Shown: positions 2,338 to 62,325 of the stretch, in pieces
How positions within the stretch are numbered: the first letter of the stretch is position 1
Layout of the letters: each line of letters begins with the position of its first letter
Origin: Myxococcota bacterium
GTDB taxonomy: Bacteria; Myxococcota_A; UBA9160; SZUA-336
Direction of reading: 5' to 3'
Assembly: GCA_965247115.1 (NCBI GenBank)
Contig: CBDFGR010000003.1
Coordinates: 2,048,001 to 2,112,000, forward strand
Length of the DNA: 64,000 bases
Position numbers and translations under genes: made by a program
The notes under the pieces: model-generated
The model's database searches: none
Told to the model about the DNA's origin: nothing
What the model saw: only the letters and a program-made list of their open reading frames with translations

Positions 2338-3756
2338 GTGAAATTCGTGGCAAGCCCAATTCTGGCAGGCGCGGCCCGGGTCGAGATCACGCCGCGGCCC
2401 GGAGTGGAGCTCATGGGGTACGGAGCCCGGCGCGGAGGGGCTGCAGCCGTGCACGATCCGCTCTTTGCACGGGCCCTCTGCCTGGCCCCGGATTCACCGA
2501 AAACTGCTGGGATTGCGCTGGTTTCGGCCGATCTTTGCCTGTTGGATCCGCGCCAGGCCGAATCCGTGCGCGAGCGCATCTCGGCCGGCTCGGGCCTGCC
2601 TCGGGAGCGGATTCTCGTCCAGTGCACGCACACCCACTCCGGTCCCGAGACAGGGCTGCAGGCGCTGAACACGAGCCGACCGCTGCCTGCCCACGTGGCT
2701 GGCATCCTGGACGGCCTCGGCAGAGCGGGACTGCAGGCCTGCGCCGCGCTGGCCCCCGCGAGCCTGCGCTGGTGCAGCTCTGAGGTACGGATTGGGCGGA
2801 ATCGAAGCCTGGAAGACGGGGCACTCGACCCGGCCCTTCACGTGCTGGACGTACGGACGGCAGCTCGAGACCCACTGGCCACGCTCTACCACTACGCGTG
2901 TCACCCAACGGTGCTGGGGCACGACAACCTCGAGATCTCGGCGGATTGGCCCGGTGTCGCGAGCGCGAGGCTAGAGCGCGAGACGGGAGCGGTTGCGCTG
3001 TTCATGCTGGGCGCCCACGCCGACATTGATCCGCGGACGCGTGGGCTGAAGGATATCTGCATTCCGGGCCAGAGCGTGGGACTCGGGTTCGATGCCGTGC
3101 GCGTGCTCGGAGAAGAGGTCGCAGGCGCCGCGCTCGAGGCGCTCGAGCAGGACGGTGGCGCTGCGCGTGAGGCCTTTCTCGGAGCTGCGAGCTGCCGGGT
3201 TCCCCTGCCCCTTCACTTGGGTGATCGCAGCGCCGACGCGACGCGCATCGAGCTCGAGCGCCGCAAGCGCCAGCTCGCCGATCTGCTGGGCGTGACTCCA
3301 CAAGAGCTCCCCCGACTCTCGGAGCTCGACCATCACGTGTCCAAGCGCGTTCGAGACCTGCCAGTCGCCGAGGCACGCGAGCAGATCGCGCGGGCTCGCC
3401 TTTACGTTCGCGACAAGACGGCGCCCTTCTTCGCCTCCGGCCAACGCGAGATCAAGGTCGAGGTCCAGGTCCTCCGCGTTGGCTCAACGGCCATCCTCGC
3501 CCTGCCAGTCGAGCCGACGACAGAGGTCGGGCTCGACTGGCGCCGCCGCACCAGTGGAAAGGCGATCGGTAAGGTCGCGGGCATCGCGAACGGCTGGCTG
3601 CGCTACCTGCCGCACCCGACAGACCTGGGCCACCCGCGGGCTCACCAACGCTACGAAGTGCTCTCGAGCATCCTCGCCCCCGGCGCATGCGAAGCCCTCC
3701 TCGACGCCGGCGAGCAGCTCCTCACACAAATCGACACCGCCCCCAAACCGCACTAG
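2338..3756 (+). CDS. Neutral/alkaline ceramidase-like N-terminal domain protein
   Basis: HDPLFARAL, CTHTHSGP, YACHPTVL and ISADWPG motifs. Confidence 0.75.
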   Translation: MKFVASPILAGAARVEITPRPGVELMGYGARRGGAAAVHDPLFARALCLAPDSPKTAGIALVSADLCLLDPRQAESVRERISAGSGLPRERILVQCTHTHSGPETGLQALNTSRPLPAHVAGILDGLGRAGLQACAALAPASLRWCSSEVRIGRNRSLEDGALDPALHVLDVRTAARDPLATLYHYACHPTVLGHDNLEISADWPGVASARLERETGAVALFMLGAHADIDPRTRGLKDICIPGQSVGLGFDAVRVLGEEVAGAALEALEQDGGAAREAFLGAASCRVPLPLHLGDRSADATRIELERRKRQLADLLGVTPQELPRLSELDHHVSKRVRDLPVAEAREQIARARLYVRDKTAPFFASGQREIKVEVQVLRVGSTAILALPVEPTTEVGLDWRRRTSGKAIGKVAGIANGWLRYLPHPTDLGHPRAHQRYEVLSSILAPGACEALLDAGEQLLTQIDTAPKPH

Positions 3757-21293: not shown

Positions 21294-22174
21294 TGGAACT
21301 CCGGGGAACCTACACCGCACTCGTAACGCCATTTCGCGCTGACGGAGGTATCGACTTCGACTCGCTCTCCTCGCTCGTGGAGTGGCAGATCGAGTCGGGG
21401 ATCGACGGACTGGTCCCGTGCGGCAGCACGGGAGAGGCGGCCACCCTCTCCCACGCCGAAGACGGGAGCGTGGTTCGTCACGTGGTCGACGTCGTGGCCG
21501 GGCGCGTACCGGTCGTGGCTGGAACGGGCTCCAACTCGACGCGCGAGGCGGCTGGGCGCACGCGGGAGGCCCGCGAGTCCGGGGCCGACGGCGCGCTGCT
21601 CATCTCGCCGTACTACAACAAGCCCACGCAGGACGGGATCTTCCTCCACTACCGCGAGGTCGCGGAAGAGTCGGGGCTACCCCTTGTGCTGTACAACATC
21701 CCGGGGCGCACGAGCTCGCGGATTGAGCCGGAGACCACGGCACGCTGCTCGCGCCTCCCGGGAGTGATCGGCCTCAAGGAGGCGGGCGGCGACCTGGGTC
21801 TGAGCTCCGAAACCATCGCGCAGTCCGACCCGGACTTCTCGGTCGTTTCCGGCGACGACTCCCTGACCCTGCCGTTGCTCGCCATCGGCGGGCGCGGCGT
21901 GATCTCCACCACGTCGAACGTGGCACCGGTGGAGATGGCTGCCATCGTGCAGGCCTTCTTCGACGGCGACACCGAGCGTGCGCGGCGCCTCCACTACGAG
22001 CTGCTTCCGCTCATGAACGCGCTCTTCATCGAGACGAACCCGATTCCGGTCAAGACCGCCTTGCAGATCCAGGGACGCATCGCGGATGCCACACTGCGGC
22101 TTCCCCTGACGGAGATGCAGAAGGGCAATCGCGACCAGCTCGAGGCCGCGCTCGGAGCCCTCGACCGCGCATGA
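21293..22174 (+). CDS. dapA: 4-hydroxy-tetrahydrodipicolinate synthase
   Basis: GSTGE, PYYNKP, YNIPGRT, GLKEA and ETNPIPVK motifs. Confidence 0.95.
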   Translation: MELRGTYTALVTPFRADGGIDFDSLSSLVEWQIESGIDGLVPCGSTGEAATLSHAEDGSVVRHVVDVVAGRVPVVAGTGSNSTREAAGRTREARESGADGALLISPYYNKPTQDGIFLHYREVAEESGLPLVLYNIPGRTSSRIEPETTARCSRLPGVIGLKEAGGDLGLSSETIAQSDPDFSVVSGDDSLTLPLLAIGGRGVISTTSNVAPVEMAAIVQAFFDGDTERARRLHYELLPLMNALFIETNPIPVKTALQIQGRIADATLRLPLTEMQKGNRDQLEAALGALDRA

Positions 22175-22965
22175 CACGCGTCGCGGTCGTCGGAGCCGCA
22201 GGTCGCATGGGCCACCACATCCTGCGGGCCCTGGAGTCCAGAGCGTCGTTCGACGTCGGCGCGGCCCTCGATAGCTCGAGCCACCCCGACCTCGGCAAGG
22301 AGGTCTCCCCTGGCGTCGAGCTCACGAGCGACCTCGGGGCGGCCCTCGCGAGTTGCGACGTCGCCATCGACTTCTCCGTCCCGTCCTCGACCCTTGAGCT
22401 GATCGCCGAGGCGAGACGCGCAACCGTCGCGAGACGCGCAACCGTCCCCCTCGTCATCGCGACGACCGGATTCGAGGAGCCACAGCTCGAAGACATCCGC
22501 AACGCTGCCGAGCAGCTACCGATCGTCATGGCCGCAAACTACTCGCTCGGCGTAAACGTCCTACTCGACCTGGCAGCGGAGGCCGCGCGCCGGCTCGAGG
22601 GCTACGAGATCGACATCCTCGAGATGCACCACGACCAGAAGGTCGACGCCCCGAGTGGCACGGCTGTGCGCCTGGGCCGCACCGTCGCCGCTGCCAGGGG
22701 CCAGGACTTCGACCGCGTCGCCATCTACCAACGCGAAGGCCAGACGGGCCCCCGCTCCCCCGACGCGATCGGAATGCAAACCCTCCGCCTGGGCGACAGC
22801 GTCGGCGAACACACCATCTACCTGGCAGGCCCCGGCGAACGGCTGGAGCTCTCCCACCGAGCCCTCTCCCGAGAAAACTTCGCCACCGGCGCCCTCCGCG
22901 CCGCCACCTGGATCCAAGACAAACCCCCGGGCCTCTACTCGATGGGTGACGTCCTCGGCTCTTAA
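22171..22965 (+). CDS. dapB: 4-hydroxy-tetrahydrodipicolinate reductase
   Basis: GAAGRMG, IDFS and EMHHDQKVDAPSGTA motifs. Confidence 0.95.
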   Translation: MTRVAVVGAAGRMGHHILRALESRASFDVGAALDSSSHPDLGKEVSPGVELTSDLGAALASCDVAIDFSVPSSTLELIAEARRATVARRATVPLVIATTGFEEPQLEDIRNAAEQLPIVMAANYSLGVNVLLDLAAEAARRLEGYEIDILEMHHDQKVDAPSGTAVRLGRTVAAARGQDFDRVAIYQREGQTGPRSPDAIGMQTLRLGDSVGEHTIYLAGPGERLELSHRALSRENFATGALRAATWIQDKPPGLYSMGDVLGS

Positions 22966-22983: not shown

Positions 22984-23102
22984 GGCGGTGGAGGTCGGGA
23001 AACTTCCCCCGCAGGATCGTGTAGCGGTGCCCGAGGCGACCCCGCTGCAGATCCAGCTGAGTAGCGAGATCCGGCGGGGGAAGTTTCCCGACCTTCGCCG
23101 CC
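22984..23102. repeat. Family B long-hairpin element, copy 1
   Basis: About 35-bp inverted arms (ggaggtcgggaaacttccccc / gggggaagtttcccgacct) around a GTAGCGGTGCCCGAGGCG core; lies between convergent dapB and glnA. Confidence 0.9.
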
Positions 23103-23127: not shown

Positions 23128-24552
23128 TTAGATATCGAAGTACAGCTCGAACTCATGCGGATGAGGCCGCAACGCAACCTGCTTGCACTCTCTCTCCCGC
23201 TTGTACTCGATCCAAGTCGACAGCGCGTCCTCCGTGAAGACATCGCCCTTCAGCAAGAACTCGTGATCCTCTTCCAGGCAGTCGAGAGCCTCTTCGAGCG
23301 TCCCAGGCATCACGGGCACGTGCGCGAGCTCCTCTGGCGACAGGGCGTAGATGTCCTTGTCGAGCGGGTCACCGGGGTCGATCTTGTTCTCGATCCCGTC
23401 GAGGCCGGCCATCAGCATGGCCGTGAACGCCAGGTACGGATTGCAGGTCGGATCGGGGAAGCGGATCTCGACGCGCTTTGCCTTCGGGCTCGGCGAGTAC
23501 ATCGGAATGCGGGCAGCCGCTGAACGATTCCGACTCGAGTACGCCAGGCTGACCGGAGCCTCGAAGCCTGGCACCAGACGTTTGTAGGAGTTCGTGGTCG
23601 GGTTCGTGAACGCCGCGAGGGCGCGCGCGTGCTGGAGCACACCACCAATGTAGTACAGACAGTCCGACGAGACGCCCGCGTACTCGTTGCCGGCGAAGAG
23701 CGGCTGGCCGTCCCGCCAGAGCGACTGGTGGACGTGCATGCCCGTGCCGTTGTCGTCGAAGACGGGCTTTGCCATGAAGGTCACCGTCTTGCCCGCGCTT
23801 CTTGCGACGTTCTTGACCACGTACTTGTAGAGCAGGAGCGAGTCCGCCATCTCTACCAGCGGCTTGAAGCGCATGTCGATCTCGGCCTGCCCTGCCGTCG
23901 CGACCTCGTGATGCTGGGCCTCGATCTGGATCCCGAGCTCCTCCATCTGCAGGACCATCTCGCTGCGAAGGTTCTGGAGCGAATCGCTCGGCGGGACCGG
24001 GAAGTATCCCTCCTTGTAGCGCGGCTTGTAACCCAGGTTCGGGCCCTCCTCCCGGCCGCTGTTCCAGCGGGCCTCGACCGAGTCCACGTAGTAGAAGCCC
24101 GAGCTCTGGCTCGTCTGATAGCGAACGTCATCGAAGATGAAGAACTCGGCCTCGGGTCCGAAGTAGGCCGTGTCCGCGATGCCGGTGAGCTTCAGATAGT
24201 TGATCGCCTTGGTGGCGATGTGCCGCGGATCTCGGGTGTACGACTCGCGCGTGATCGGGTCGACGATGTTGCAGATCATCGACAGGGTGGGATGATCGCA
24301 GAACGGATCGATGAAGGCGGTGTCCGGATCCGGAACCACGAGCATGTCGCTGGAATCGATGCTCTGCCAGCCGCGAATGCTCGAGCCGTCGAAGCCGAGC
24401 CCATCCTGGAAGGTGGACTCCTCCAGCTCGTGAAGGGGGACCGTGAAGTGCTGCCACATTCCGGGCCAGTCAATGAACTTTAGATCGACGAGCCGCGCGC
24501 CCTTGGCGCTCGCGAAGTCCAGTACGTCCTTGGGGGTTCTAGGGGTATGCAT
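23128..24552 (-). CDS. glnA: Type I glutamine synthetase
   Basis: [24 protein letters not shown] and NRSAAARIP motifs; adenylylation Tyr in KDIY. Confidence 0.96.
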
Positions 24553-26532: not shown

Positions 26533-27186
26533 CTACGACCGGAAGTCGCGTAACCAGCCCAGCGTTCGAGGCGTCAGCGCCTCGGACAGCTCCGGCTCGA
26601 GCAGCTCGAGGTCGGCCCCCGTGTCCACGTCGTAATGCGGGGGCAACAGCTCGGTACGGAGCCCAGCCTCCCTCGCGCGCTCGAGCGTCTGCTCGAGCAC
26701 GCTGGCGGTACTCATCTCGAGCTCGAACAACGCATCCTGGGGCTCCCGCAGCCCGATCAGGTTGTAGCCCCCATCGAGGTCGGGACACAGAACCACGTCA
26801 CTGTTCTCGAGCCGGGCAAAGGCCTCCTCGATCCGTTCGATCGGAAGCGTGGGACTGTCGCTGCCCCGCAGCACCAGCCGCGTGTAGCCCTCTACGACAT
26901 GGCGATGAAACAGATACTGCATCCGCTCGGCCAGGGTGTCTCCACGCTGCGGCAGCAGCCTGTACCCCTCCGGAACTGCGCTCCGAAACCACTGCTGTGC
27001 AGAGGTCGGCTCGTACCAGAGCACCCGATCAACGCCATCGCCCCGCGAGTGCTGATCGAGAATGTCGCGCAGCATCGCCTCATAGAACGAAGCCGCCTCC
27101 TCGAGAGAAAAGGGCGGCGAAAGCCGGGTCTTCACCTTCCCGGCCACCGGTTGCTTCGCGAACAACGCAAGCACGCGTGCGGGCAC
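26533..27186 (-). CDS. CofC-like/DUF2064 glycosyltransferase-fold protein
   Basis: FAKQPVAGKVKTRL, GSDSPTL, DGGYNLIG and YDVDT motifs. Confidence 0.8.
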   Translation of the reverse strand: MPARVLALFAKQPVAGKVKTRLSPPFSLEEAASFYEAMLRDILDQHSRGDGVDRVLWYEPTSAQQWFRSAVPEGYRLLPQRGDTLAERMQYLFHRHVVEGYTRLVLRGSDSPTLPIERIEEAFARLENSDVVLCPDLDGGYNLIGLREPQDALFELEMSTASVLEQTLERAREAGLRTELLPPHYDVDTGADLELLEPELSEALTPRTLGWLRDFRS

Positions 27187-27208: not shown

Positions 27209-27333
27209 GGGAGCCGGAGGTCGGGGGAACCTTCCCCGGCGGACTCCGCTCCTTGCGTGCTCAGAGGGGCCTGCTCGCCTCGGGTACCGCTACCACAGTC
27301 CGCCGGGGAAGGTTCCCCCGACCTCCGGCTCCC
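27209..27333. repeat. Family B long-hairpin element, copy 2 (core inverted)
   Basis: Perfect ~37-bp inverted arms; the reverse complement of the loop gives GTAGCGGTACCCGAGGCG. Confidence 0.9.
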
Positions 27334-27342
27334 TTTGGCTCT

Positions 27343-28260
27343 CTATTCGGGGCCTGTGACCGTGGTGGGAATGCCTTCGATTTCTAGGCTGGTGCCGGGC
27401 TGAGCCTGATTCTTGTGGACGTAGCCAAGCGCCAGCGGGCCTGTGGCGGCCGAGCTCGCAGCGCTCGTCACGCGGCCCACGTTTTTGCCATCAGCCATGA
27501 TCTTGGCTCCAGGAGCCACGGGCTGCTCGGGAGCGAGCGTGACGAGCAGCCGATTCACCGCGCCGCGCGAGTCGATACGCGCAACGATCTCCTGTCCGAC
27601 GTAGCAACCCTTGGTGAACGATACGGCTCGGTCGAGACGCGCTTCCTGGGGGAAGCTCCGGTCCGTGAAGTCGATGCCGTGCGCTGGGCGGCAGCCCTGG
27701 ATGCGCAGTACTTCACACGCCTCTGAAGAGAGGGAGGGCAGCTCGAGCGCCACCCGTAGGTCCGCCAGGGCCGCAGGGTCGCCGAGGATGCGGGCGCCTT
27801 CGGGCCCGAGGCTGCCGCCAGCGAGCCAGATGCGTCCGGACTCGTCGACCTCGAAGTGCCCGAGCGCCAGTGCGGCAGGAGCGTGTCCCGCGATCGCGGC
27901 CAGAGCACCCGGGCCCTCGATCCCGAGCTGCTCCCAGCCCTGCAACCGCACCAGCTCCACGTCGTCGGCAATGATGTGCTTCTCGAGCGTCTCGGCCAGA
28001 AGCGGCTCCACCGTTCCGAGCATGTCGAGCAGGACTTCGTCGGGCAGCACCAGGAGCGAGAGCTCTGCCAGGATGTGGCCTTTTCGGTCCAGCTGGAGCG
28101 AGTCACACAGCTCGCCCGGAGCCAGGATGGCCACGTCGTTGCTGACCATCCCGTTCAGGAAGCGGACGCGATCTCCCCCCGTCACGCGGATCACGCCTCG
28201 CGGACCCAGCTCACGAAGCGCGACGGAAGAGCCAACGACCTCCTCGAACGTCTCAGCCAT
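27343..28260 (-). CDS. ygfZ: Folate-binding Fe-S repair protein YgfZ/GcvT family
   Basis: KGCYVGQE signature. Confidence 0.88.
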   Translation of the reverse strand: MAETFEEVVGSSVALRELGPRGVIRVTGGDRVRFLNGMVSNDVAILAPGELCDSLQLDRKGHILAELSLLVLPDEVLLDMLGTVEPLLAETLEKHIIADDVELVRLQGWEQLGIEGPGALAAIAGHAPAALALGHFEVDESGRIWLAGGSLGPEGARILGDPAALADLRVALELPSLSSEACEVLRIQGCRPAHGIDFTDRSFPQEARLDRAVSFTKGCYVGQEIVARIDSRGAVNRLLVTLAPEQPVAPGAKIMADGKNVGRVTSAASSAATGPLALGYVHKNQAQPGTSLEIEGIPTTVTGPE

Positions 28261-29561: not shown

Positions 29562-31514
29562 GTGAGCAGTCGAGTCATCGGTATCGATCTGGGCACGCTC
29601 AACAGCTGTGCCGCGTCGGTCGAGGACGGGCGCGCCGTCATCTTGAGCGAGGACCAGCACACGACCGTCCCGTCCTGCCTCGCGTTCAAGGGCGAGAAGG
29701 AGCTCGTCGGAGGGGCCGCAAAGCGCTACGCGGTGACTGACCCCGAGAACACCGTGATCGCGGTCAAGCGCCTGTTGGGTCACCCCTTCGATTCTGACGA
29801 GGTTCGCGCGGCAACCATAGCCGCACCGTACAAGATCGTGGCCAGCTCCAAGGGCGGTGTACTGCTCAAGATCTCAGGCCATGAGCTGACACCGATTCAG
29901 GTCTCGGCTCGGGTTCTGGGCCGCGTGCGCGAGCTCGCGGAGAAGGCGCTCGGCGAGTCCGCGACCAAGGCCGTAGTCTCCGTCCCCGCACACTTCAACG
30001 ACGTGCAGCGCAAGGCAACGAAGCTGGCCGCCGAGTCCGCAGGCATCGAAGTGATCCGTCTTATCAACGAGCCCACGGCGGCCGCCTTTGCCTACGGTTA
30101 CAAGAAGGGCAGGGACTTCACGCTCGCGGTCTACGATCTCGGCGGCGGAACCTTCGACGTCACGATCATGCGCGCACGGGGAGACACCTTCGAAGTGCTG
30201 GCCACCGACGGGGACTCCTACCTCGGCGGCGAGGACTTCGATGCTGCGATCGCCGGCTGGCTCCGGGAGGAGTTCGAACGTCAGCACAACTCCCGCCTAG
30301 AAGGCGACGACACCGCGCTCCTGCGTCTCAGGGAGGCGGCCGAGAAGGCCAAAATCGAGCTGGCCGAGGTCGACACGGCTCAGATCGAGCTGCCCTACCT
30401 GGCGCAGCTCCCCGACGGTGGACACGTCGACTTCTCGACGACGCTGACCCGAAGCAAGGCGAACGAGCTCGTCCAGCCGTTGATCCAGAGGACGCTGGAG
30501 CTCTGCTCCCGCTGCATCGAGAATGCCATGGTCGCTCCCGTTGAGCTCGACGACGTGCTCCTCGTCGGCGGCCAGAGCCGCATGCTGGCGGTGCAGGAGG
30601 CAGTTGCCGGGCTCTTCAAGACGGACCCACGACGCGACATCAATCCCGACGAAGTGGTCGCGCTCGGAGCCGCCCTCTACGGGTACTCGATCTCCGCGGA
30701 CTCGCTCAAGGCGTCCGCCGAGGACGCGGCGGGAGACGCCCTGGGCATGGCCTTGAAGGAAACTGGAATCGCGCGCAAGCTTCTCAACAGCGTCGACGAG
30801 GTGCAACAGCACTCGTCGAGCGACGACTCGCTGCAGACCTTGCTCGATGATCTGCTCGATGCGCAGGGTACCGGAGGCACGGATGAGCTGACCAGCGATC
30901 CAGACGCAGATCTGCCGGCGGCCTCCAAGAGGGTTCGCAACGAGCTGCTGGAGCTCGACTACAAGATGTCCGAGCTCACCGAGAAGCTCGACACGGATTC
31001 CCCTGAAGGCCTCGAAGCGGCTCTCGAGCAGATCTCCGAGCAGCTCAGTGCAGCACACTCCTTCTCGGACGAAGCGAATGAGTATCTCGAAGAGGCAGAG
31101 CAGCATGCCTCCGCGCGCAAGATCGAGCTGCAAGACGTCACCTCGCTGCCGCTGGGGATCGGAACCATCGGCAACGTCCTCTCGATCCTGATCGACCAGA
31201 ACACTCCGGTGCCTACAGAGCACCGGCGCATGTTCACGACGAACGAGGACGCGCAGGAGGAGGTCGAGATCTGCGTCTACCAGGGACGCTCGCGCGACGC
31301 GAGCGTGAACCAGCTGCTGGGCGCCTTCACTCTGTGGGGCATTGCGGCGGCACCGCGGCTCACACCAAAGATCGAGGTCGCCTTCTACATCGACGAGGAC
31401 GGCATCCTCTCGGTCAGCGCCTCCGACGCCGCCTCCGGAGCCCAGCAGAGCATCCGCGTAGAGGACCCCCTCGGCGTCCAGGCCACCCAGTCCCACCGCA
31501 AACCAGGGCGGTAA
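29562..31514 (+). CDS. Atypical Hsp70/DnaK-family protein
   Basis: GIDLGT, VPAHFND, NEPTAAA, DLGGGTFD and NPDEVVA motifs; long insertion before DVTSLPLGI; no C-terminal lid. Confidence 0.9.
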   Translation: MSSRVIGIDLGTLNSCAASVEDGRAVILSEDQHTTVPSCLAFKGEKELVGGAAKRYAVTDPENTVIAVKRLLGHPFDSDEVRAATIAAPYKIVASSKGGVLLKISGHELTPIQVSARVLGRVRELAEKALGESATKAVVSVPAHFNDVQRKATKLAAESAGIEVIRLINEPTAAAFAYGYKKGRDFTLAVYDLGGGTFDVTIMRARGDTFEVLATDGDSYLGGEDFDAAIAGWLREEFERQHNSRLEGDDTALLRLREAAEKAKIELAEVDTAQIELPYLAQLPDGGHVDFSTTLTRSKANELVQPLIQRTLELCSRCIENAMVAPVELDDVLLVGGQSRMLAVQEAVAGLFKTDPRRDINPDEVVALGAALYGYSISADSLKASAEDAAGDALGMALKETGIARKLLNSVDEVQQHSSSDDSLQTLLDDLLDAQGTGGTDELTSDPDADLPAASKRVRNELLELDYKMSELTEKLDTDSPEGLEAALEQISEQLSAAHSFSDEANEYLEEAEQHASARKIELQDVTSLPLGIGTIGNVLSILIDQNTPVPTEHRRMFTTNEDAQEEVEICVYQGRSRDASVNQLLGAFTLWGIAAAPRLTPKIEVAFYIDEDGILSVSASDAASGAQQSIRVEDPLGVQATQSHRKPGR

Positions 31515-31519
31515 GTCTC

Positions 31520-31918
31520 GTGGGACCCGGCGCGCGAGCGGTCGCGCGCCACCCACCTCCGCTCAGGCCTACGGCCTTCGCTGCGCGCGCCGCTTCCGCG
31601 GCGCGCGCAGGTTGTTTGGCCGAAGTCGGAACTTCTGGTCACTCTGGCGGGACTCTTGGGCACATTCGTTCATCTGGGCATCGCTGCGGTCGTCTCACGC
31701 GGATTAAGTTCTGATTAAGGACCGTCCCTAAGTTATGTGCGCGGAATAAGTTCAGATTAGGGACCGGCCCCTGGTTGAGCGCGTTCCGGTTCTGGAGAGA
31801 ACCGGCAACCGCCTACGGGGCTTGGCAGCCTGCAAGCGCCGCGGATGCGGCGCGCGCAGCGAAGGCCGTAGGCCTGAGCGGAGGTGGGTGGCCGCGGACG
31901 CCCGCGGCCGGGTCCCAC
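31520..31918. mobile_element. Composite palindromic repeat cassette 1 (A>, D, C, C, <E, <A), REPIN/MITE-like
   Basis: About 72-bp family A elements inverted at both ends (GTGGGACC...GGTCCCAC); internal modules shared with 50809-51240. Confidence 0.75.
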
Positions 31919-40049: not shown

Positions 40050-40790
40050 GTGAACGAGCTGGTCCTGCTGGGAGCGGGCTTTCTCGCGGGAGTGCTCGCG
40101 GCCGCACGCCTGCGTCGTGCGCCGAAGCGCGAGACTCGCTACGAGCGCGGCAGCTTCGACCTCGTTCGCGCCGAGCTCGATCGCGATCAGGGCGCCGACC
40201 GCGTGGGATCCGCTCCAGACTGCAACAACCCCGCTCCGCACCTGCTCTCGCTCTTCGCGGAGGCGCTTCGCGAGCCGTTGCGCCAGCTTCGGCGCGAGCC
40301 CGCGCGCGCAGCCGAGGCTGTCGAGCGGCTGGAACGCATTGTCTGGCAAGCGCGCATGCTCGTCTCGCGACCCCGCCCAATGCAGGCCACCGCGACCTCA
40401 CCCATCGCGCTGCTGCAGGAGGCAGCCGAGGAGGTGCCCCTGCTCCGAGACGGGATCGTCACGGCGTCCTGGAGCTTGCTCAACCGTCAGCCCATCGAGC
40501 TCGACCCCGAACGCACGCGCGGCGCCTTCCGCGAGCTGCTCGCCGCCGGCGCCGAGGCCGCGTCCGAAGGAGGCCGCCTCGGGATCAAGATCCTCCAGGG
40601 CCAGGACTCCGGCTTCCCGGTTCGGATCGAGGTAGAGATCGGCAGACGCGGCACGGAAACCGACTCGCTGTCGTTCCTGGTCGCCCGCCACCTCCTCGAA
40701 AGCCAGGGCGCCCAGCTCGAGGTAGACGGCAACCTCACCCGCATCCAACTGAGAAACGCCGCCCCCTCCGACGCCGAACTAGCCGCCTAG
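40050..40790 (+). CDS. Membrane-anchored histidine-kinase-like protein lacking the phospho-His
   Basis: N-terminal TM, FAEALREPL HisKA-like helix and degenerate HATPase (LSFLVARHLLESQGA). Confidence 0.55.
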   Translation: MNELVLLGAGFLAGVLAAARLRRAPKRETRYERGSFDLVRAELDRDQGADRVGSAPDCNNPAPHLLSLFAEALREPLRQLRREPARAAEAVERLERIVWQARMLVSRPRPMQATATSPIALLQEAAEEVPLLRDGIVTASWSLLNRQPIELDPERTRGAFRELLAAGAEAASEGGRLGIKILQGQDSGFPVRIEVEIGRRGTETDSLSFLVARHLLESQGAQLEVDGNLTRIQLRNAAPSDAELAA

Positions 40791-40830
40791 CCAAAACAAA
40801 AAAGAAGAGCACCGGCCAAGCTGGCAAGGA

Positions 40831-40874
40831 GTCGGATGTCGGGGTCCTCCGGGGGGAGGATCCCGACCTCCGAC
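40831..40874. repeat. Family B short (core-less) hairpin
   Basis: gtcggatgtcgggg...cccgacctccgac with the same ggcaaggagtcgg lead-in as copy 3; lies between convergent genes. Confidence 0.75.
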
Positions 40875-40886
40875 GGCCTGGGTCCG

Positions 40887-45262: not shown

Positions 45263-46107
45263 GGAGCGCTGCGCGGCGTGGCGTGAAGCGCAGTCTGAAT
45301 CAACCTTGCCGCACTGCCGAGCTCGGCACCCGGCACCGTCACGACTCCGGTCGGGATCAGCTCCACGCGCCCGATCCACGCGAAGCGTGACCAGTACCGC
45401 TGTGCCTCGCTGTCATCATCGAGAGGAGGGTACGTCGTATCTACGAGCACGTCTGGCCGACGCTCGGCCAGAGTCTCCAGCGCGACCTGTGGATACGGGG
45501 CGTCGAGGTCCCCAAACACGTTCTCTCCGCCGGCAATCCCGATCAGCTCGGACACGAAGCTCCCGCCACCCACGATATAGAGCGGCTCACGGTTCACCAC
45601 CAGAGCAACGCTCGGGCGCACGCGCTCCCCCGCTGCAGCCGCGATCCTATCGAGCTCGGCCACGATCCGAGCCACGAGTGCCTCGCCCTCGGTCCCGCGC
45701 CCCACGAGCGTTGCGATCTTTCGAAAGCTCGCGAGAACTTCGGGAAGGGTGTGTGGATCAAACTCGTGAACCGCGACTCCCCGCGCACGCAGCTGCTCGA
45801 AGAACGGTCGCTGCTGCGCGCTCGCAACCCCGAGAACCAGCGTCGGTCGCAGCTCGATGCTCCGCTCGAGGTCGGGAGCAAACAAGCCACCGAGCGACGG
45901 TACCTCCTCGAGCCCTGGCAGCTCACGCGAGAACCGATCACTCCCGACGAGCGCATCGCCCACCCCCAACGCGACCAGTACCCCACTGATCGAAGGCGAG
46001 AGCGAAATCACCCGCAGCCCCTCCCCGCGAGCGACAGGGTCAGGAGCACAAGCCACCAAGAGCCATACCCCCACCAAGAGCCCTGCCGACGACCACCCGC
46101 AGAACAC
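45259..46107 (-). CDS. BtuF-like helical-backbone substrate-binding lipoprotein (start approximate)
   Basis: LVA-C lipobox, RVISLSPS, PDLE..L.P.LV and AGGENVF motifs; GAGGAGG upstream. Confidence 0.8.
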   Translation of the reverse strand: MFCGWSSAGLLVGVWLLVACAPDPVARGEGLRVISLSPSISGVLVALGVGDALVGSDRFSRELPGLEEVPSLGGLFAPDLERSIELRPTLVLGVASAQQRPFFEQLRARGVAVHEFDPHTLPEVLASFRKIATLVGRGTEGEALVARIVAELDRIAAAAGERVRPSVALVVNREPLYIVGGGSFVSELIGIAGGENVFGDLDAPYPQVALETLAERRPDVLVDTTYPPLDDDSEAQRYWSRFAWIGRVELIPTGVVTVPGAELGSAARLIQTALHATPRSAP

Positions 46108-46135
46108 ACACCCTCCTCGGAGCAACGAACCAAGT

Positions 46136-46168
46136 AAGTTCAGATTAAGGACCGTCCCTAAGTTCGGA
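46136..46168 (+). repeat. Family C short repeat
   Basis: aagttcagattaaggaccgtccctaagttcgga; near-identical copies at 31706, 31748, 50940 (inverted) and 51065. Confidence 0.85.
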
Positions 46169-46184
46169 CGCAAGCCGGCAAGGA

Positions 46185-46298
46185 GTCGGAGGTCGGGGAA
46201 CATCCCCCGGAGGACTGTGGTAGCGGTGTCCGAGGCGACCCGGTCCCCTGTGAACGCGAGGAGCGGAGTCCGCCGGGGGATGTTCCCCGACCTCCGAC
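46185..46298. repeat. Family B long-hairpin element, copy 3
   Basis: gtcggaggtcggggaacatccccc / gggggatgttccccgacctccgac arms; GTAGCGGTGTCCGAGGCG core. Confidence 0.9.
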
Positions 46299-46355
46299 GG
46301 CGGAGGGTCACAAGACGGACGGGGGAGGCGCCCCCCCCCGCCCGCCTTTCCAGGC

Positions 46356-49708: not shown

Positions 49709-50804
49709 ACGTGAGCCCATCCCCTTGCTCGACCTCCGCCCGGAGATCGAGCAGCTCCAGCCCGAGCTCCGGGCCGCCATCGACCGGGTCGTGCGTTCGG
49801 GCCGCTTCATCCTCGGCCCGGAGGTAGAGGCCTTCGAGCGAGAGATCTCTCGCTACCTCGGCGTCGCTCACGCCGTTACTCTGAACTCCGGTACAGACGC
49901 GCTCATCATCGGCCTGCGCGCCCTCGGCGTCCGCCCTGGCGACGAGGTCATCACCACCTCCTTCAGCTTCTTCGCCAGCGCGGAGGCCATCAGCCACCTC
50001 GGCGCGACTCCCGTCTTCGCCGACATCGACCCGAGAAGCTTCAACCTCGACCCGGCTTCTGTAGAAGCACGGCTCTCGAGCAGAACGAGGGTCATCCTCC
50101 CCGTCCACCTCTTTGGGCAACCCGCAAACATGACGGAGCTGGCGCGCCTCGCGCAGCACCACGACCTGCCCCTGCTCGAGGATGCAGCTCAGGCCATCGG
50201 GGCCGAGTACGCAGGTGAGAAGATAGGCACGCTGGGCACGGCGGCGGCCTTCTCCTTCTATCCGTCGAAGAATCTCGGCGCCTTTGGCGACGGCGGCCTA
50301 CTGGCCACCGGAAGTGCAAAGGTGGCCGACGAGGCCCGCAGCCTCCGCGACCACGGCGCGACCGGTCCCTACGTTCACGACAGACTCGGCTACGCCTCCC
50401 GCCTCGACGAGCTTCAAGCAGCCATCCTGCGAGTCAAGCTCCCACACCTCGACGCTTGGAACACGGCGCGCCGTCACGTCGCGGACACCTACCGCAAGCA
50501 CCTGGCAGCGGTCGACGTAGCCACTCCCGCAGAGCTCCCCCCCGCACATCACATCTACCACCAGTTCACGCTCCGCATCCCCGCCAACAAACGCGACGCC
50601 GCAAAGGAAGCGCTCGCGGCCGAAGGAATCGCGAGCGCGATCTACTACCCGGTCCCTCTACACCAAATGCCCGTATACGGTACCCCCGAGGTTGTCTTGC
50701 CCGAATCCGAAAGAGCCGCGACCGAAGTCCTGAGCCTCCCGATCTGGCCATCCCTCGACTCCCCCCGCATCGAACACATCGCCACCACCCTCAAGAGGGT
50801 CTAG
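49701..50804 (+). CDS. DegT/DnrJ/EryC1/StrS sugar aminotransferase
   Basis: SGTDAL, EDAAQA, SFYPSKNLG and SRLDELQAA motifs. Confidence 0.92.
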   Translation: MPEREPIPLLDLRPEIEQLQPELRAAIDRVVRSGRFILGPEVEAFEREISRYLGVAHAVTLNSGTDALIIGLRALGVRPGDEVITTSFSFFASAEAISHLGATPVFADIDPRSFNLDPASVEARLSSRTRVILPVHLFGQPANMTELARLAQHHDLPLLEDAAQAIGAEYAGEKIGTLGTAAAFSFYPSKNLGAFGDGGLLATGSAKVADEARSLRDHGATGPYVHDRLGYASRLDELQAAILRVKLPHLDAWNTARRHVADTYRKHLAAVDVATPAELPPAHHIYHQFTLRIPANKRDAAKEALAAEGIASAIYYPVPLHQMPVYGTPEVVLPESERAATEVLSLPIWPSLDSPRIEHIATTLKRV

Positions 50805-50808
50805 TCTT

Positions 50809-51240
50809 GTGGGACCCGGCCGCGGGCGTCCGCGGCCACCCACCTTCGCTCAGGCCCAGGGCCTTCGCTGCGCGCGCCGCGTTCCGCGGCGCTTGCATGG
50901 TTGCCAAGCCCCGTAGGAGGTTGCCGGTTCTCCACGGAATCCGAACTTGGGGACGGTCCTTAGTCCGAACTTGTTTGGCCGATGTCGGAACTTCTGGTCA
51001 CTCTGGCGGGACTCTTGGGCACATTCGTTGATCTAGGCGTCGCCGCGGTCGTCTCACACGGAATAAGTTCGGATTAAGGACCGTCCCCAAGACAAGTTTG
51101 GCCGACTCGAGGCTCATCCGGCAGGGAGTCGGGGGTCGGGAACGTCCCCCTCCGGACCGTGTAGCGGTGTTGGAGGCGTGCTCAATGCGGGCACAGCTGA
51201 GTAGCGAGGGCCGGAGGGGGACGTTCCCGACCCCCGACGG
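50809..51240. mobile_element. Composite palindromic repeat cassette 2 (A>, E>, <C, D, C>, B copy 4)
   Basis: Same modules as 31520-31918 in a different order, plus a family B hairpin at 51128-51238. Confidence 0.75.
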
Positions 51241-58095: not shown

Positions 58096-58858
58096 GCTTC
58101 ACCCTTTCGAGAAGCTCCTCAGCCAAACGCAGGTAGCTGAGGGCCCCCTTTGAGTTGATGTCATAGAGCAGCGCGGGCTCGCCGTGGCTCGGAGCCTCGG
58201 AGAGGCGAACGTTCCTGGGGATGACTGTGCTGAAGACCTTGTCCCCGAAATGCTCGCGGGCGTCCCGTGCCACCTGCAGGGACAGGTTGTTGCGGGGGTC
58301 GTACATGGTCAGAAGCAGACCCTCGAGCTCGAGCTCCGGGTTCAGCTCCGCACGGACCAGATCCATGGTGTCGATGAGTCTCGCCAGTCCCTCGAGTGCG
58401 AGATACTCGCATTGCAGCGGAATGAGCACGGAATTCGCCGCTACCAGAGCGTTCAGGGTCAGCAGTCCCAGAGACGGAGGCGTATCAATCAAAATGACCT
58501 GATAGCGGTCCCGAATGCTACTCACACAGGCCGCCAACCTGCGCTCACGGTCCGCCGCTCCAGCCAGCTCGACCTCTGCGCCGACGAGCTCACTAGAGGC
58601 CGGAATCAGCTGAAGGCACTGGAGCTGGGTCCCCAACGCAACCTCGTCGAGAGTGGCCTCCCCGGTCAACGCATCGTAGATGTCACTCTTCACGTCTCCG
58701 ACCAGATATCCCAAGCTGGACGTGGAGTTGGCCTGGGGGTCGAAGTCGATCAGCAAGGTGCGGCACTCCGCCGCTGCCAGCGAGGCTCCGAGATTGACGG
58801 CAGTCGCCGTCTTCCCCACCCCGCCTTTCTGATTCGCCAAGGCGATGATCCGCGCCAT
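58082..58858 (-). CDS. parA: Chromosome partitioning ATPase ParA/Soj
   Basis: NQKGGVGKT, DPQAN, DTPPSLG and IPRNVRLSEAPSHG motifs. Confidence 0.95.
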   Translation of the reverse strand: MARIIALANQKGGVGKTATAVNLGASLAAAECRTLLIDFDPQANSTSSLGYLVGDVKSDIYDALTGEATLDEVALGTQLQCLQLIPASSELVGAEVELAGAADRERRLAACVSSIRDRYQVILIDTPPSLGLLTLNALVAANSVLIPLQCEYLALEGLARLIDTMDLVRAELNPELELEGLLLTMYDPRNNLSLQVARDAREHFGDKVFSTVIPRNVRLSEAPSHGEPALLYDINSKGALSYLRLAEELLERVKHGNP

Positions 58859-58871
58859 CTCACCCCCCTAC

Positions 58872-59187
58872 TGTGGGACCCGCGCGCGGGCGGCCGCGCG
58901 CACCCACCTTCGCTCAGGCCTACGGCCTTCGCTGCGCGCCCCCGCCAAAGGCGGGGGCTTGCTTGTGTTTTTTGAATGTAACTCTGTGAGACCCCGCGCG
59001 CGGGCGGCCGCGCGCGCCCACCTTCGCTCAGGCCTATGGCCTTCGCTGCGCGCCCCCGCCAAAGGCGGGGGCTTGCGTGCGTTTCTTGAATGTAACTCTG
59101 TGAGACCCCGCGCGCGGGCGGCCCTCCCGCGGGTCAACGACCCGCGGGCTGCTGACTGCGCCCACCCGGTGTTTTCTGAATGTAACT
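58872..59187 (+). repeat. Tandem array of family A units (two full ~113-bp units plus one variant)
   Basis: Units start at 58872, 58985 and 59099; each ends with TGAATGTAACT. Confidence 0.9.
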
Positions 59188-60495: not shown

Positions 60496-60530
60496 GTTTC
60501 TTCCTTTCCTTGTGGGGCCCGGCCTGCCTT

Positions 60531-60621
60531 GTGGGACCGGCCTGCGTACGGCCGCAGGCCACCCACCTTCGCTCAGGCCTTTGGCCTTCGCTGCGCGCGC
60601 CGCTTTCGCGGCGCTTGCATG
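60531..60621 (+). repeat. Family A element between yidC and jag
   Basis: GTGGGACC...ACCCACCTTCGCTCAGGCCtttGGCCTTCGCTGCGCGCGCCGC...GCTTGCATGG. Confidence 0.88.
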
Positions 60622-60630
60622 GGTGCAGCG

Positions 60631-62325
60631 TCACTTTGTTTCCTCGGGCGCGGGTTGTCGGTTGACGAATAGCTGTTGGGCGATGCCCAGCAAGTTGCTT
60701 ACGAACCAATAGAGAACCAGCCCGGAGGGGAAGCGGTAAAAGAGAAAGATAAACATCACACTCATCATCGTCATCATCTGCTTCTGCTGCGGGTCTGCAC
60801 TGGGCGTCGGCGTCATGCGCTGCTGCAGAACCATCGTCGCGCCCATCATCAGCGGGAGAAGGCGGATGGGGATGCCCGCGATCGAGAAGAGATCCTCCGG
60901 AGCCGAGAGGTCATCGATCCAGAAAATGAAGGGTGCGTGGCGCAGCTCGATCGTGCTCTGGAGCGCGAAATACAGGGCGATCATGAAGGGCATCTGGATC
61001 AGCATCGGCAAACAGCCGCCGCCCATCGCCGTCAGGGGGTTCATCCCCTTGCGCTTATACAGGCCCATCAGCTCCTCCTGCTGCTTGCCCTTGTCGTCCT
61101 TGTACTTCTCCTGAATCTCCTTCATCTGAGGAGCGATCACCCCGAACTTCTTCATCGACTTCATCGAGCGTTGCGTCAGAGGGAACGTGGCCACGCGCAG
61201 CACGATGGTGAGCAGGATGATGGCTACCCCGTAGTTCCCCACGATATGTGCGTACGTCCAGGCCAGCATGCCCGCGAAGAGATCAACCAGGGGGCGCACG
61301 AAGGCCCAGCCGACAGCCAGGGCAGGCAGAAGCTCCGGATCGACCGAGGCGACCTTCTCGCGGACCTTTGGTCCGAGGTAGAGCCGGTAGGTCCGCTCCA
61401 CCCCGGTTCCTGGGGGCACATAGAAGGCCGGATAGTTGACCTGCGCCCAGCCCAGGTTCGGACCGAGAGGTCCGAGAAAACCTGAGGATTCTCGGGGGTT
61501 TTCGACGACGGATGCGGCCAAGAAGTACTGGCTGTCCAGACCGACCCAGGAGACGGGCGCCGGCACCGGCTCACCGGTGGGTGGGCCGCCTCCGGTAAGG
61601 CCCGAGAAGAATCCTGGGCTCCCGATCCCCTGCAGCGCCCTCCGATCGATCGCGGCGTCAGCGGAAGCCACCAGGCTGAAATTCTGAAAGCGGTCCGGGG
61701 CATCGGAGTCACGCTCTCTCCCGTACCAGACAAGCTGGAAGCGAGGCTGGATCGCAACCTCCGTCCGATTCTTGATCGAGAGCCTGAGCCGACCCCCATA
61801 GCCTGCGTCATCGATGCTGATGCGACGCGTCACTGTCAGCCCCTGGCGCTCGACCCGGAGCTCCAGCTCGTATCCGGTTGCCTGCACCACCTCGTGCTCG
61901 AGGTCCTGAAGATCCGCCAGCATGGGATCATCCCCTAGGAAAACCAGTAGGTTCCCGAGCGATGGATCCGTCACGAGCTCGACCGGACCGCCTCCTCCTC
62001 CGACCCGATCGGCGTAGTCCTTGAGCTGTACGCTCACCAGACGACCACCGACGTTGCTCACCACGATCCGCAGTGCGTCATTCTCAAGAACACGAGTCTG
62101 ACGCTGCGTCAAAGACCTCCCAGCTGCGTCATCCCGCCCTTCCGCGGCCTCGAGCGGGCTCGCTGCGATCGTTTCGAGGGGCGCTTGAGGCCCGGCGGCA
62201 GGCGGAGGAGCCGTCGGCGACGAGCCGGTCTGGCTCGGAGGGGCGGGGGATCTCCCACCGAACAAGAAGGAGAGTGCGATCAGCCCAACGGCTACGGCAA
62301 TAGCGGCGATCTGCAGGCGGTCCAC
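60631..62325 (-). CDS. yidC: Membrane protein insertase YidC
   Basis: YLGPK, NYGVAIILLT, GGCLP.LIQMP, WIDDLS and GLVLYW motifs. Confidence 0.95.
   Translation of the reverse strand: MDRLQIAAIAVAVGLIALSFLFGGRSPAPPSQTGSSPTAPPPAAGPQAPLETIAASPLEAAEGRDDAAGRSLTQRQTRVLENDALRIVVSNVGGRLVSVQLKDYADRVGGGGGPVELVTDPSLGNLLVFLGDDPMLADLQDLEHEVVQATGYELELRVERQGLTVTRRISIDDAGYGGRLRLSIKNRTEVAIQPRFQLVWYGRERDSDAPDRFQNFSLVASADAAIDRRALQGIGSPGFFSGLTGGGPPTGEPVPAPVSWVGLDSQYFLAASVVENPRESSGFLGPLGPNLGWAQVNYPAFYVPPGTGVERTYRLYLGPKVREKVASVDPELLPALAVGWAFVRPLVDLFAGMLAWTYAHIVGNYGVAIILLTIVLRVATFPLTQRSMKSMKKFGVIAPQMKEIQEKYKDDKGKQQEELMGLYKRKGMNPLTAMGGGCLPMLIQMPFMIALYFALQSTIELRHAPFIFWIDDLSAPEDLFSIAGIPIRLLPLMMGATMVLQQRMTPTPSADPQQKQMMTMMSVMFIFLFYRFPSGLVLYWFVSNLLGIAQQLFVNRQPAPEETK

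Follow-up and report, generated by a model that had tools for sequence, protein, structure and literature searches.

REP-like repeats in a Myxococcota genome are flanked by an oriented, strand-specific substitution footprint

When examining the silent sites of genes that adjoin intergenic palindromic repeats in the genome of a Myxococcota bacterium, we observed that, on the strand reading towards the repeat, C and A are enriched at these sites at the expense of G and T. This footprint is strong and is seen genome-wide, around the 195 repeat cassettes that we found; it decays over a few hundred nucleotides, forms irrespective of the direction of the gene or of the replication fork, and lies on a side that is set mostly by the orientation of the element itself. 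Its origin is likely to be mutational. The footprint is particularly clear in the 3' end of dapB (22171-22965, TIGR00036), in the window examined here, that is, the whole 64-kb stretch of DNA that was analysed.

The score used throughout is the excess of G+T at silent sites over the genome expectation, on the strand that reads towards the element; the associated site-level p-values treat sites as independent. At the dapB end (22700-22965, plus strand), where silent G and T give way to C and A, the score is -0.32 (80 sites), and only 2 of 2694 element-free gene ends (mean -0.008, sd 0.063) score as low. The codon counts of an earlier note on this DNA were recovered exactly: the last 80 codons of dapB contain GAA and GAG at 4:1 and CAA and CAG at 3:1, and the degT-like gene goes from GAA 1:GAG 8 in its first 49 codons to GAA 6:GAG 1 in its last 75. 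In the part of dapB outside the last 80 codons, the ratio is GAA 1:GAG 12. The phenomenon had been described as a depletion of G; G is indeed lost, but so is T. Apart from its footprint, dapB contains an exact 18-nt in-frame tandem duplication (22411-22446) that amounts to six extra residues; no gaps are listed there in four public runs.

The dapB footprint lies to the left of a family B repeat in the B+ orientation (22984..23102, plus strand), which consists of 35-nt inverted arms and an asymmetric core in the alignment of 29 B copies and has the same orientation in the related genome G002. On the far side of this repeat, the 3' end of glnA (23128..23380, minus strand, TIGR00653) shows a shift of the reverse sign (+0.12), so the earlier suspicion that this flank did not fit was justified. 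Other footprints in the window, all read on the plus strand, lie at 31260..31514 (-0.15), to the left of a composite cassette A+ D+ C+ E- A- (31520..31918); at 40500..40800 (-0.25), to the left of a short B-like hairpin (40817..40877, plus strand; repeat families D7 and D9), which falls under the HMM threshold set for cassettes; at 45750..46130 (-0.18 at silent sites), covering a spacer and the 5' portion of the minus-strand gene next to it, before a cassette C+ B+ (46136..46299, plus strand); and at 50550..50804 (-0.27), within the 3'-terminal part of the degT-like aminotransferase gene, before a composite cassette A+ E+ C- D+ C+ B+ (50808..51239). The A/C-rich tracts that had been noticed by eye on the plus strand are accordingly genuine at 40500-40790 and, in the minus-strand gene, at 45750-46011 (raw G+T is 0.28 in 45950-46130), but weak at 58400-58858 (-0.09). 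By contrast, the T-rich tracts said to follow the elements at 27343, 31918 and 60631 have no significance at silent sites (-0.03, -0.08 and -0.01, respectively). Only one of the three, at 60620-60700, is rich in raw G+T (0.65); it is the G/T-rich spacer that follows a solo A+ copy (60530..60619, plus strand), and the adjoining gene end is the one left unshifted at -0.01.

The genome comprises 5.17 Mb in three contigs, with 4588 genes called using a dicodon model, 3511 of which entered the gene-end comparison; five repeat families (A-E) were delineated by iterated profiles. Among the 300 flanks with enough sites, 238 have negative scores. In the last 25 codons of 173 element-ended genes, the frequencies of C and G at fourfold sites are 0.608 and 0.218, compared to 0.463 and 0.351 at 1009 element-free convergent ends, and the A-ending fraction of Glu, Gln and Lys codons is 0.341, compared to 0.168 at free convergent ends. 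The mirror image appears in 87 genes that start at an element (G 0.447 and C 0.340, versus 0.384 and 0.417 in 2213 controls). In raw composition, the strand reading towards the element is C/A-rich over 300-400 nt, and across 260 driven flanks, that is, those on the side favoured by the polarity rules given below, the shift decays exponentially with a length of 178 ± 16 nt. The shift extends beyond silent sites: codon positions 1-2 have a G+T of 0.480 at 121 driven ends and of 0.509 at 3040 free ends, and in the last 50 residues of the 121 driven genes Pro, Thr and His are up whereas Gly and Val are down.

The proposal of a local, directional, element-anchored footprint survives the two comparisons by which it could have failed, because the shift at element-free gene ends is just about -0.01 to -0.03 and the skew falls off with distance from the elements. 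A general gene-end effect is rejected on the former ground. Genes of both orientations are affected, with antisense genes overall about half as strongly, and the direction of the fork, judged from local skew, is irrelevant (-0.085 for origin-proximal and -0.099 for origin-distal flanks, 166 of each). Fork-linked exposure of single strands, as in IS200/IS605, is rejected by this likeness of proximal and distal flanks (332 of 390 flanks have a clear local skew). Nor does any hairpin or terminator suffice, given that stems other than REP-like ones are unshifted in the few cases at hand: strong hairpins in 12 element-free co-directional or divergent gaps give -0.003 and -0.009, and three convergent non-REP stems give +0.03. 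Nothing comparable was seen at tRNA genes and tandem arrays, the downstream flanks of tRNA genes being slightly shifted (-0.05). Many of the strongest gaps classed as element-free in fact contain other hairpin repeats or genes for Y1 nucleases. The footprint is uncorrelated with the HMM score of A copies, taken as a measure of element age (rho -0.09, n 58), and evidence on dose is mixed: tandem A copies apparently double the shift (-0.24), but pooled copy number has no dose effect.

Which flank is shifted depends mostly on how the element is turned. For 79 solo A copies, the 3' flank is shifted (-0.11 in sense and -0.06 in antisense genes) and the 5' flank hardly so (-0.03 and +0.006); the weakly shifted left (5') flank of the tandem A+ A+ at 58872..59075 (plus strand) in the window is what is expected of the non-driven side of A. 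In family C, the 3' flank is mostly the shifted one, and in 11 C-C+ pairs both outer flanks are shifted equally (sense -0.20, antisense -0.17). Family B keeps its polarity in 12 of 18 solo copies, with the other side shifted in 5, and on the far side of five solo copies the shift is of the reverse sign and at least +0.15, which accounts for the misfit at glnA. These polarity rules were derived from the genome itself (G000), so the contrast between driven and non-driven flanks within it is partly circular, and outside tests were therefore sought in the orthologs of dapB and in an inverted B copy.

Among 30 dapB orthologs, a strong shift (z about -5) is found only in G000 and G002, both of which have B after the gene, and in G015, where the gap contains an unrelated hairpin tagged GTAG; the remaining 27 lie between +0.07 and -0.15. 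In G014, an A+ copy occupies the dapB-glnA gap, and it is glnA that is shifted (-0.14, z -2.9) and not dapB (-0.06), which matches the prediction. There is no footprint at the dapB gap of G009, which has a hairpin resembling that of G015, or of G013, which has a long inverted repeat. The G015 and G009 hairpins are related and of the GTAG type, the G015 copy with a strong footprint and the G009 copy with none.

The second test concerns the B copy at 27211..27331 (minus strand), which is B- in G000 and B+ in G002, a genome sampled over 2.77 Mb of about 5.8 Mb, with 1.77 Mb aligned at 86%. Behind the inverted element, in the 3' end of a ygfZ-like gene (27343..27600, minus strand), the score changes from +0.23 in G002 to -0.02 in G000. 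In this flank, 29 of 56 silent sites differ, a divergence reached by 32 of 5474 free segments, and from G002 to G000 there are 19 forward (G/T→C/A) and 4 reverse changes. The other flank (26930..27186, plus strand) retains the old shift (-0.18), which it has in common with G002, and is read as a relic. The lineage in which the element turned over is a probable assignment, read off the flanks themselves in a comparison without an outgroup. On the whole, the footprints of G002 are weaker than those of G000. The G002 orthologs of G000:C1:240895 and C1:257433 have B copies interrupted by insertion sequences.

The spectrum of changes is broad and symmetrical. Fourfold sites show equal gains of C and A and equal losses of G and T (observed/expected is 1.38 for C and 0.62 for G), and the log-odds of the keto→amino shift are uniform (C/G 0.80, A/G 0.72, C/T 0.74, A/T 0.65; A/C -0.08, T/G 0.07). 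There is no dependence on neighbours: across all contexts, G loss stays within 0.56-0.86 and T loss within 0.59-0.89, without a motif, and on this account a deaminase motif is rejected, as is avoidance of CT cleavage sites. In the 39 flanks driven only in G000, G>C, G>A and T>C stand at 101/54, 81/47 and 80/40. On the strand reading away from the element, the changes from G002 to G000 over 5777 sites of driven flanks include C>T at 260/144, A>G at 204/135 and C>G at 268/157, with A>T (23/17) too rare for power; these changes are pairwise, without an outgroup, and G→T versus C→A is unpolarised.

Close to elements, total divergence at silent sites is only marginally higher than elsewhere (0.245-0.275 versus 0.243). 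G↔C divergence, when normalised, reaches 1.41 within 120 nt (CI 1.17-1.66), closer to the value predicted by added mutation (1.51) than to that predicted by fixation bias (1.10), and normalised G↔T divergence also exceeds the fixation-only prediction; added mutation is favoured by only some of the 7 classes of change, and fourfold T↔C divergence (0.82) falls under both predictions. In AIC fits that assume a stationary ancestor and pool the flanks, the best-fitting models have additive or multiplicative keto→amino changes and are equalled by C-plus/G-minus selection when its scales are left free, whereas one-parameter selection for A/C is 4-10 AIC units worse than the best and a C-only model more than 120 worse; that the fits set the strength in the G002 lineage to zero is suggestive only. 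The earlier note had offered two sources for the footprint. Cytosine deamination alone is not supported: as a model it is 71-115 AIC units worse, G→C matches G→A in frequency on the strand directed towards the element, and there is no motif. Error-prone resynthesis, by contrast, fits both the spectrum and the decay.

Our preferred reading, to which we assign a probability of roughly 0.45, is that the footprint is left by nicking at the repeat followed by error-prone copying outwards. An HUH/Y1 nuclease of the RAYT type would nick one strand at the repeat and a polymerase of the Pol I type would re-copy the nicked strand away from it, leaving errors behind, so that the strand running 5'→3' from the element would be the newly made one. 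If so, the side, the decay and the spectrum are all explained with this single assumption. Patches of a few hundred bases would produce the exponential decay, and in family B the patch would often originate beyond the element and be extended across it, which would give the reverse sign on glnA. Components of this scheme have precedents in the available portions of the literature: single-stranded REP DNA is nicked by TnpA-REP on either side, and extension of the resulting 3'-OH by host polymerases has been proposed (PMC3333891, PMC8266576); in the Pol I footprint of ColE1 replication, the rarer member of each complementary pair of errors on the nascent strand is T→C, G→A, T→A, C→A or G→C, and error density falls exponentially from the priming site (PMC3167613). 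As far as that ColE1 account goes, C→T, A→G and C→G prevail over their complements on the nascent strand as they do here, although the system is an engineered error-prone Pol I in E. coli, RNA-primed and with a reach of about 1 kb (PMC3167613). The footprint described here is chromosomal and evolutionary, and it reaches about 300 nt from a putative priming point.

No polymerase is singled out by the gene content, which includes MutL and three matches to Y-family polymerases; one of the latter genes (G000:C3:1260016-1260453) is less than 1 kb from a B element. Pol I binds BIMEs. That the repeats are sites of active DNA processing, as the earlier note held, is something that we infer, because selection on RNA fits too and no cognate nuclease was found for A or B.

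Selection on RNA, which we consider unlikely, would keep the transcripts that run into the element A/C-rich and unstructured, for loading of Rho or for folding of the hairpin, with the element acting as an orientation-dependent pause. A rho gene is present, unstructured RNA would need just such a gain of A and C and loss of G and U, the effect is overall stronger in sense than in antisense genes, the models fit the G000-G002 pairs nearly equally, with total divergence hardly raised, and E. coli REPs have been linked to Rho termination in the accessible text of two reports (PMC6061677, 10.64898/2026.03.23.713779). However, the gain of A equals that of C and the loss of T equals that of G; the C-only model fits far worse; the tract sits within translated coding ends; the C-C+ pairs are equally strong on antisense genes; strong element-free hairpins are unshifted; and the doubled divergence behind the inverted B, by our estimate, outpaces weak selection. 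Of the traits of a rut tract, the flanks have the C-rich, G-poor composition but neither C-specificity nor untranslated RNA downstream of the REP.

The sign in E. coli argues against selection on RNA as well. In a K-12 control of 650 kb in 13 chosen stretches, with 117 REP units in 48 clusters identified by motif, REP flanks have the opposite sign, the strand reading towards the REP being G-rich (+0.10 within 100 nt, +0.04 to 400, about 0 beyond 800 nt). This shift, mostly a gain of G, occurs in sense and antisense genes and in both replichores, with REP-free ends at +0.007. It agrees with the C-over-G enrichment downstream of Rho-dependent ends near REPs in the parts of PMC6061677 at hand, which is the geometry of the Rho work, so the footprint described here differs from the known pattern. 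The two are alike in being local, over a few hundred bases beside REP hairpins, but according to the same portion of that source the C-rich strand in E. coli runs away from the REP and the skew is mainly C/G, whereas here a C/A-rich strand runs towards the element and T is lost too (PMC6061677). The E. coli skew may also stem from the same process with nicks placed upstream of the repeat.

Less likely still is damage to the away strand as displaced single-stranded DNA, in which nicking or unwinding is followed by deamination of C and A, together with bypass of abasic sites, and then re-annealing. The geometry would be the same as under nick-primed resynthesis, and the sign is that of the leading-strand skew of the genome. 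The usual changes in single strands are C→T and A→G on one strand, as observed. Such damage, however, must also yield C→G as frequently as C→T, and it has to contend with the rejection of the deamination-only model and with the lack of a context motif.

Biased conversion or repair with strand polarity, in which strand exchange or the repair of a patch would set out from nicks at the element and mismatch resolution would carry a keto/amino bias, appears improbable. It would shift fixation with little extra mutation, in keeping with forward changes being up, reverse changes down and the net rise small, and with the uniform log-odds. Also in its favour is a diverged dapB allele in other samples (32 differences in 807 nt). 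Across four public runs, this piece and one with 16 differences in 328 nt, both beside B copies, are the most diverged, with element-free pieces diverging by up to 2.3%. Against it, G↔C and G↔T divergence lies above the fixation-only prediction, and recombination tracts starting at the elements are not directly evident.

Very improbable, in our view, are promoters in the elements that fire outwards and keep a few hundred bases of the non-template strand exposed: the 16-copy Y1 family described below combines a consensus promoter with a G/T-rich sense strand, and the small shift downstream of tRNA genes points the same way, but the dapB-glnA element has no promoter-like site, the shift is absent at 32 consensus promoters remote from elements (+0.02 to -0.005), and the Y1 loci are shifted upstream too. 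The idea that elements merely insert or persist where skew pre-exists, to which the partial shift of G002 at sites without a detected element (0.370 versus 0.470) lends some colour, is already weakened and hardly credible, as such G002 gaps often contain remnants or other families, 27 of the 30 dapB orthologs have no strong shift, and inversion of B alters the flank in place.

The repeats themselves are of a known kind, judging from the available text of PMC3733652 and PMC6006769. The 195 cassettes contain 194 hits of A, 98 of C, 27 of D and 38 of E, together with B at 29 loci; they are intergenic, palindromic and multi-copy, often in mosaic clusters, as is typical of GTAG-type REPs and REPINs. 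By eye, the A consensus begins with GTGG, and B has GTAG within the core and not in the outer foot. The genome has 17 loci with Y1 genes, and at none of the 17 is the gene flanked by A or B; family C alone flanks a RAYT-like gene. Inverted C copies bracket this lone gene (G000:C3:2177117-2177944), and the flanks outside them are both strongly skewed. The gene has the NHYH and YVHLNP motifs of subclass 2.1 and matches PF01797 above the cut-off, scores 76.2 bits against the NF047646 cut-off of 80, and is frameshifted after the catalytic core, so that the frame does not run intact into a C-terminal helix-turn-helix domain, with a helical tail in a different frame; the frameshift may be an assembly error. 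The D spacers between inverted C copies look like non-autonomous derivatives of this gene.

The other 16 Y1 loci are copies of a second family, in which the sense strand is rich in G and T (0.40-0.59 G at fourfold sites) and a consensus promoter is present; the downstream footprint is -0.25 to -0.08 over 300 nt, and the upstream flanks are shifted as well. These copies are mostly in convergent gaps, with insertion-sequence remnants, which we take to be IS481, just upstream. In G002 (95% complete), four matches of a weaker kind were found, none resembling the C-flanked gene, and in G014 (89% complete) an NF047646 match is absent although the polarity of A is seen.

Comparison with known systems places the repeats close to REP/BIME/REPIN elements and their RAYTs, with which they share multi-copy intergenic hairpins, mosaic cassettes and a Y1 HUH gene that has inverted copies of a single family on its two sides, as far as the accessible parts of PMC3333891, PMC8266576 and PMC6006769 describe them. 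In the published model the 3'-OH of the nick is extended by a host polymerase (PMC3333891, available sections); the same sections describe no flanking substitution footprint, and families A and B here are without a flanking nuclease gene. The C-flanked gene resembles the TIRYT/TnpA-Y1 proteins of subclass 2.1 in both motifs, and C agrees with the TIR consensus GGGG[AT][CG]A[CG] at 7 of 8 positions, its copies bracketing the gene as C- and C+; here, unlike in the published cases (PMC3733652, PMC6006769, in the text available), the gene is frameshifted and below the cut-off, and C occurs 98 times and marks footprints. In the literature listings covered, largely outside subscription journals, we found no description of a flanking substitution footprint at such repeats. 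What the present analysis adds are the orientation rules, two tests across genomes, the spectrum and the contrast with E. coli, where the sign is reversed.

The in vivo processing and spread of REPs, and the benefit of RAYTs to the cell, have long been an open question on which almost all data are in vitro. We give slightly less than even odds to the view that REP-like repeats are standing nick sites and oriented local mutators, each nick being followed by an error-prone patch of 200-300 nt on a fixed strand, with hundreds of gene ends recoded as a result. From the skew of the flanks alone one could then tell, across bacteria, whether a repeat undergoes or once underwent processing, as well as the strand and direction involved, a readable fossil of repeat processing in living cells, with recoding that reaches amino acids. 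The footprint provides an assay that can be read from genomes, predicts the nicked strand and the patch length for each family and can date activity; thus, the relative without a RAYT-like match appears to be losing its skew. At about 4-5% of the gene ends in this genome, codon bias and divergence appear to be set by the neighbouring repeat and not by translation. Additional small hairpin families outside A-E occur at footprints as well, among other places at G000:C3:1368462, C2:1320265, C3:282965 and C1:65442.
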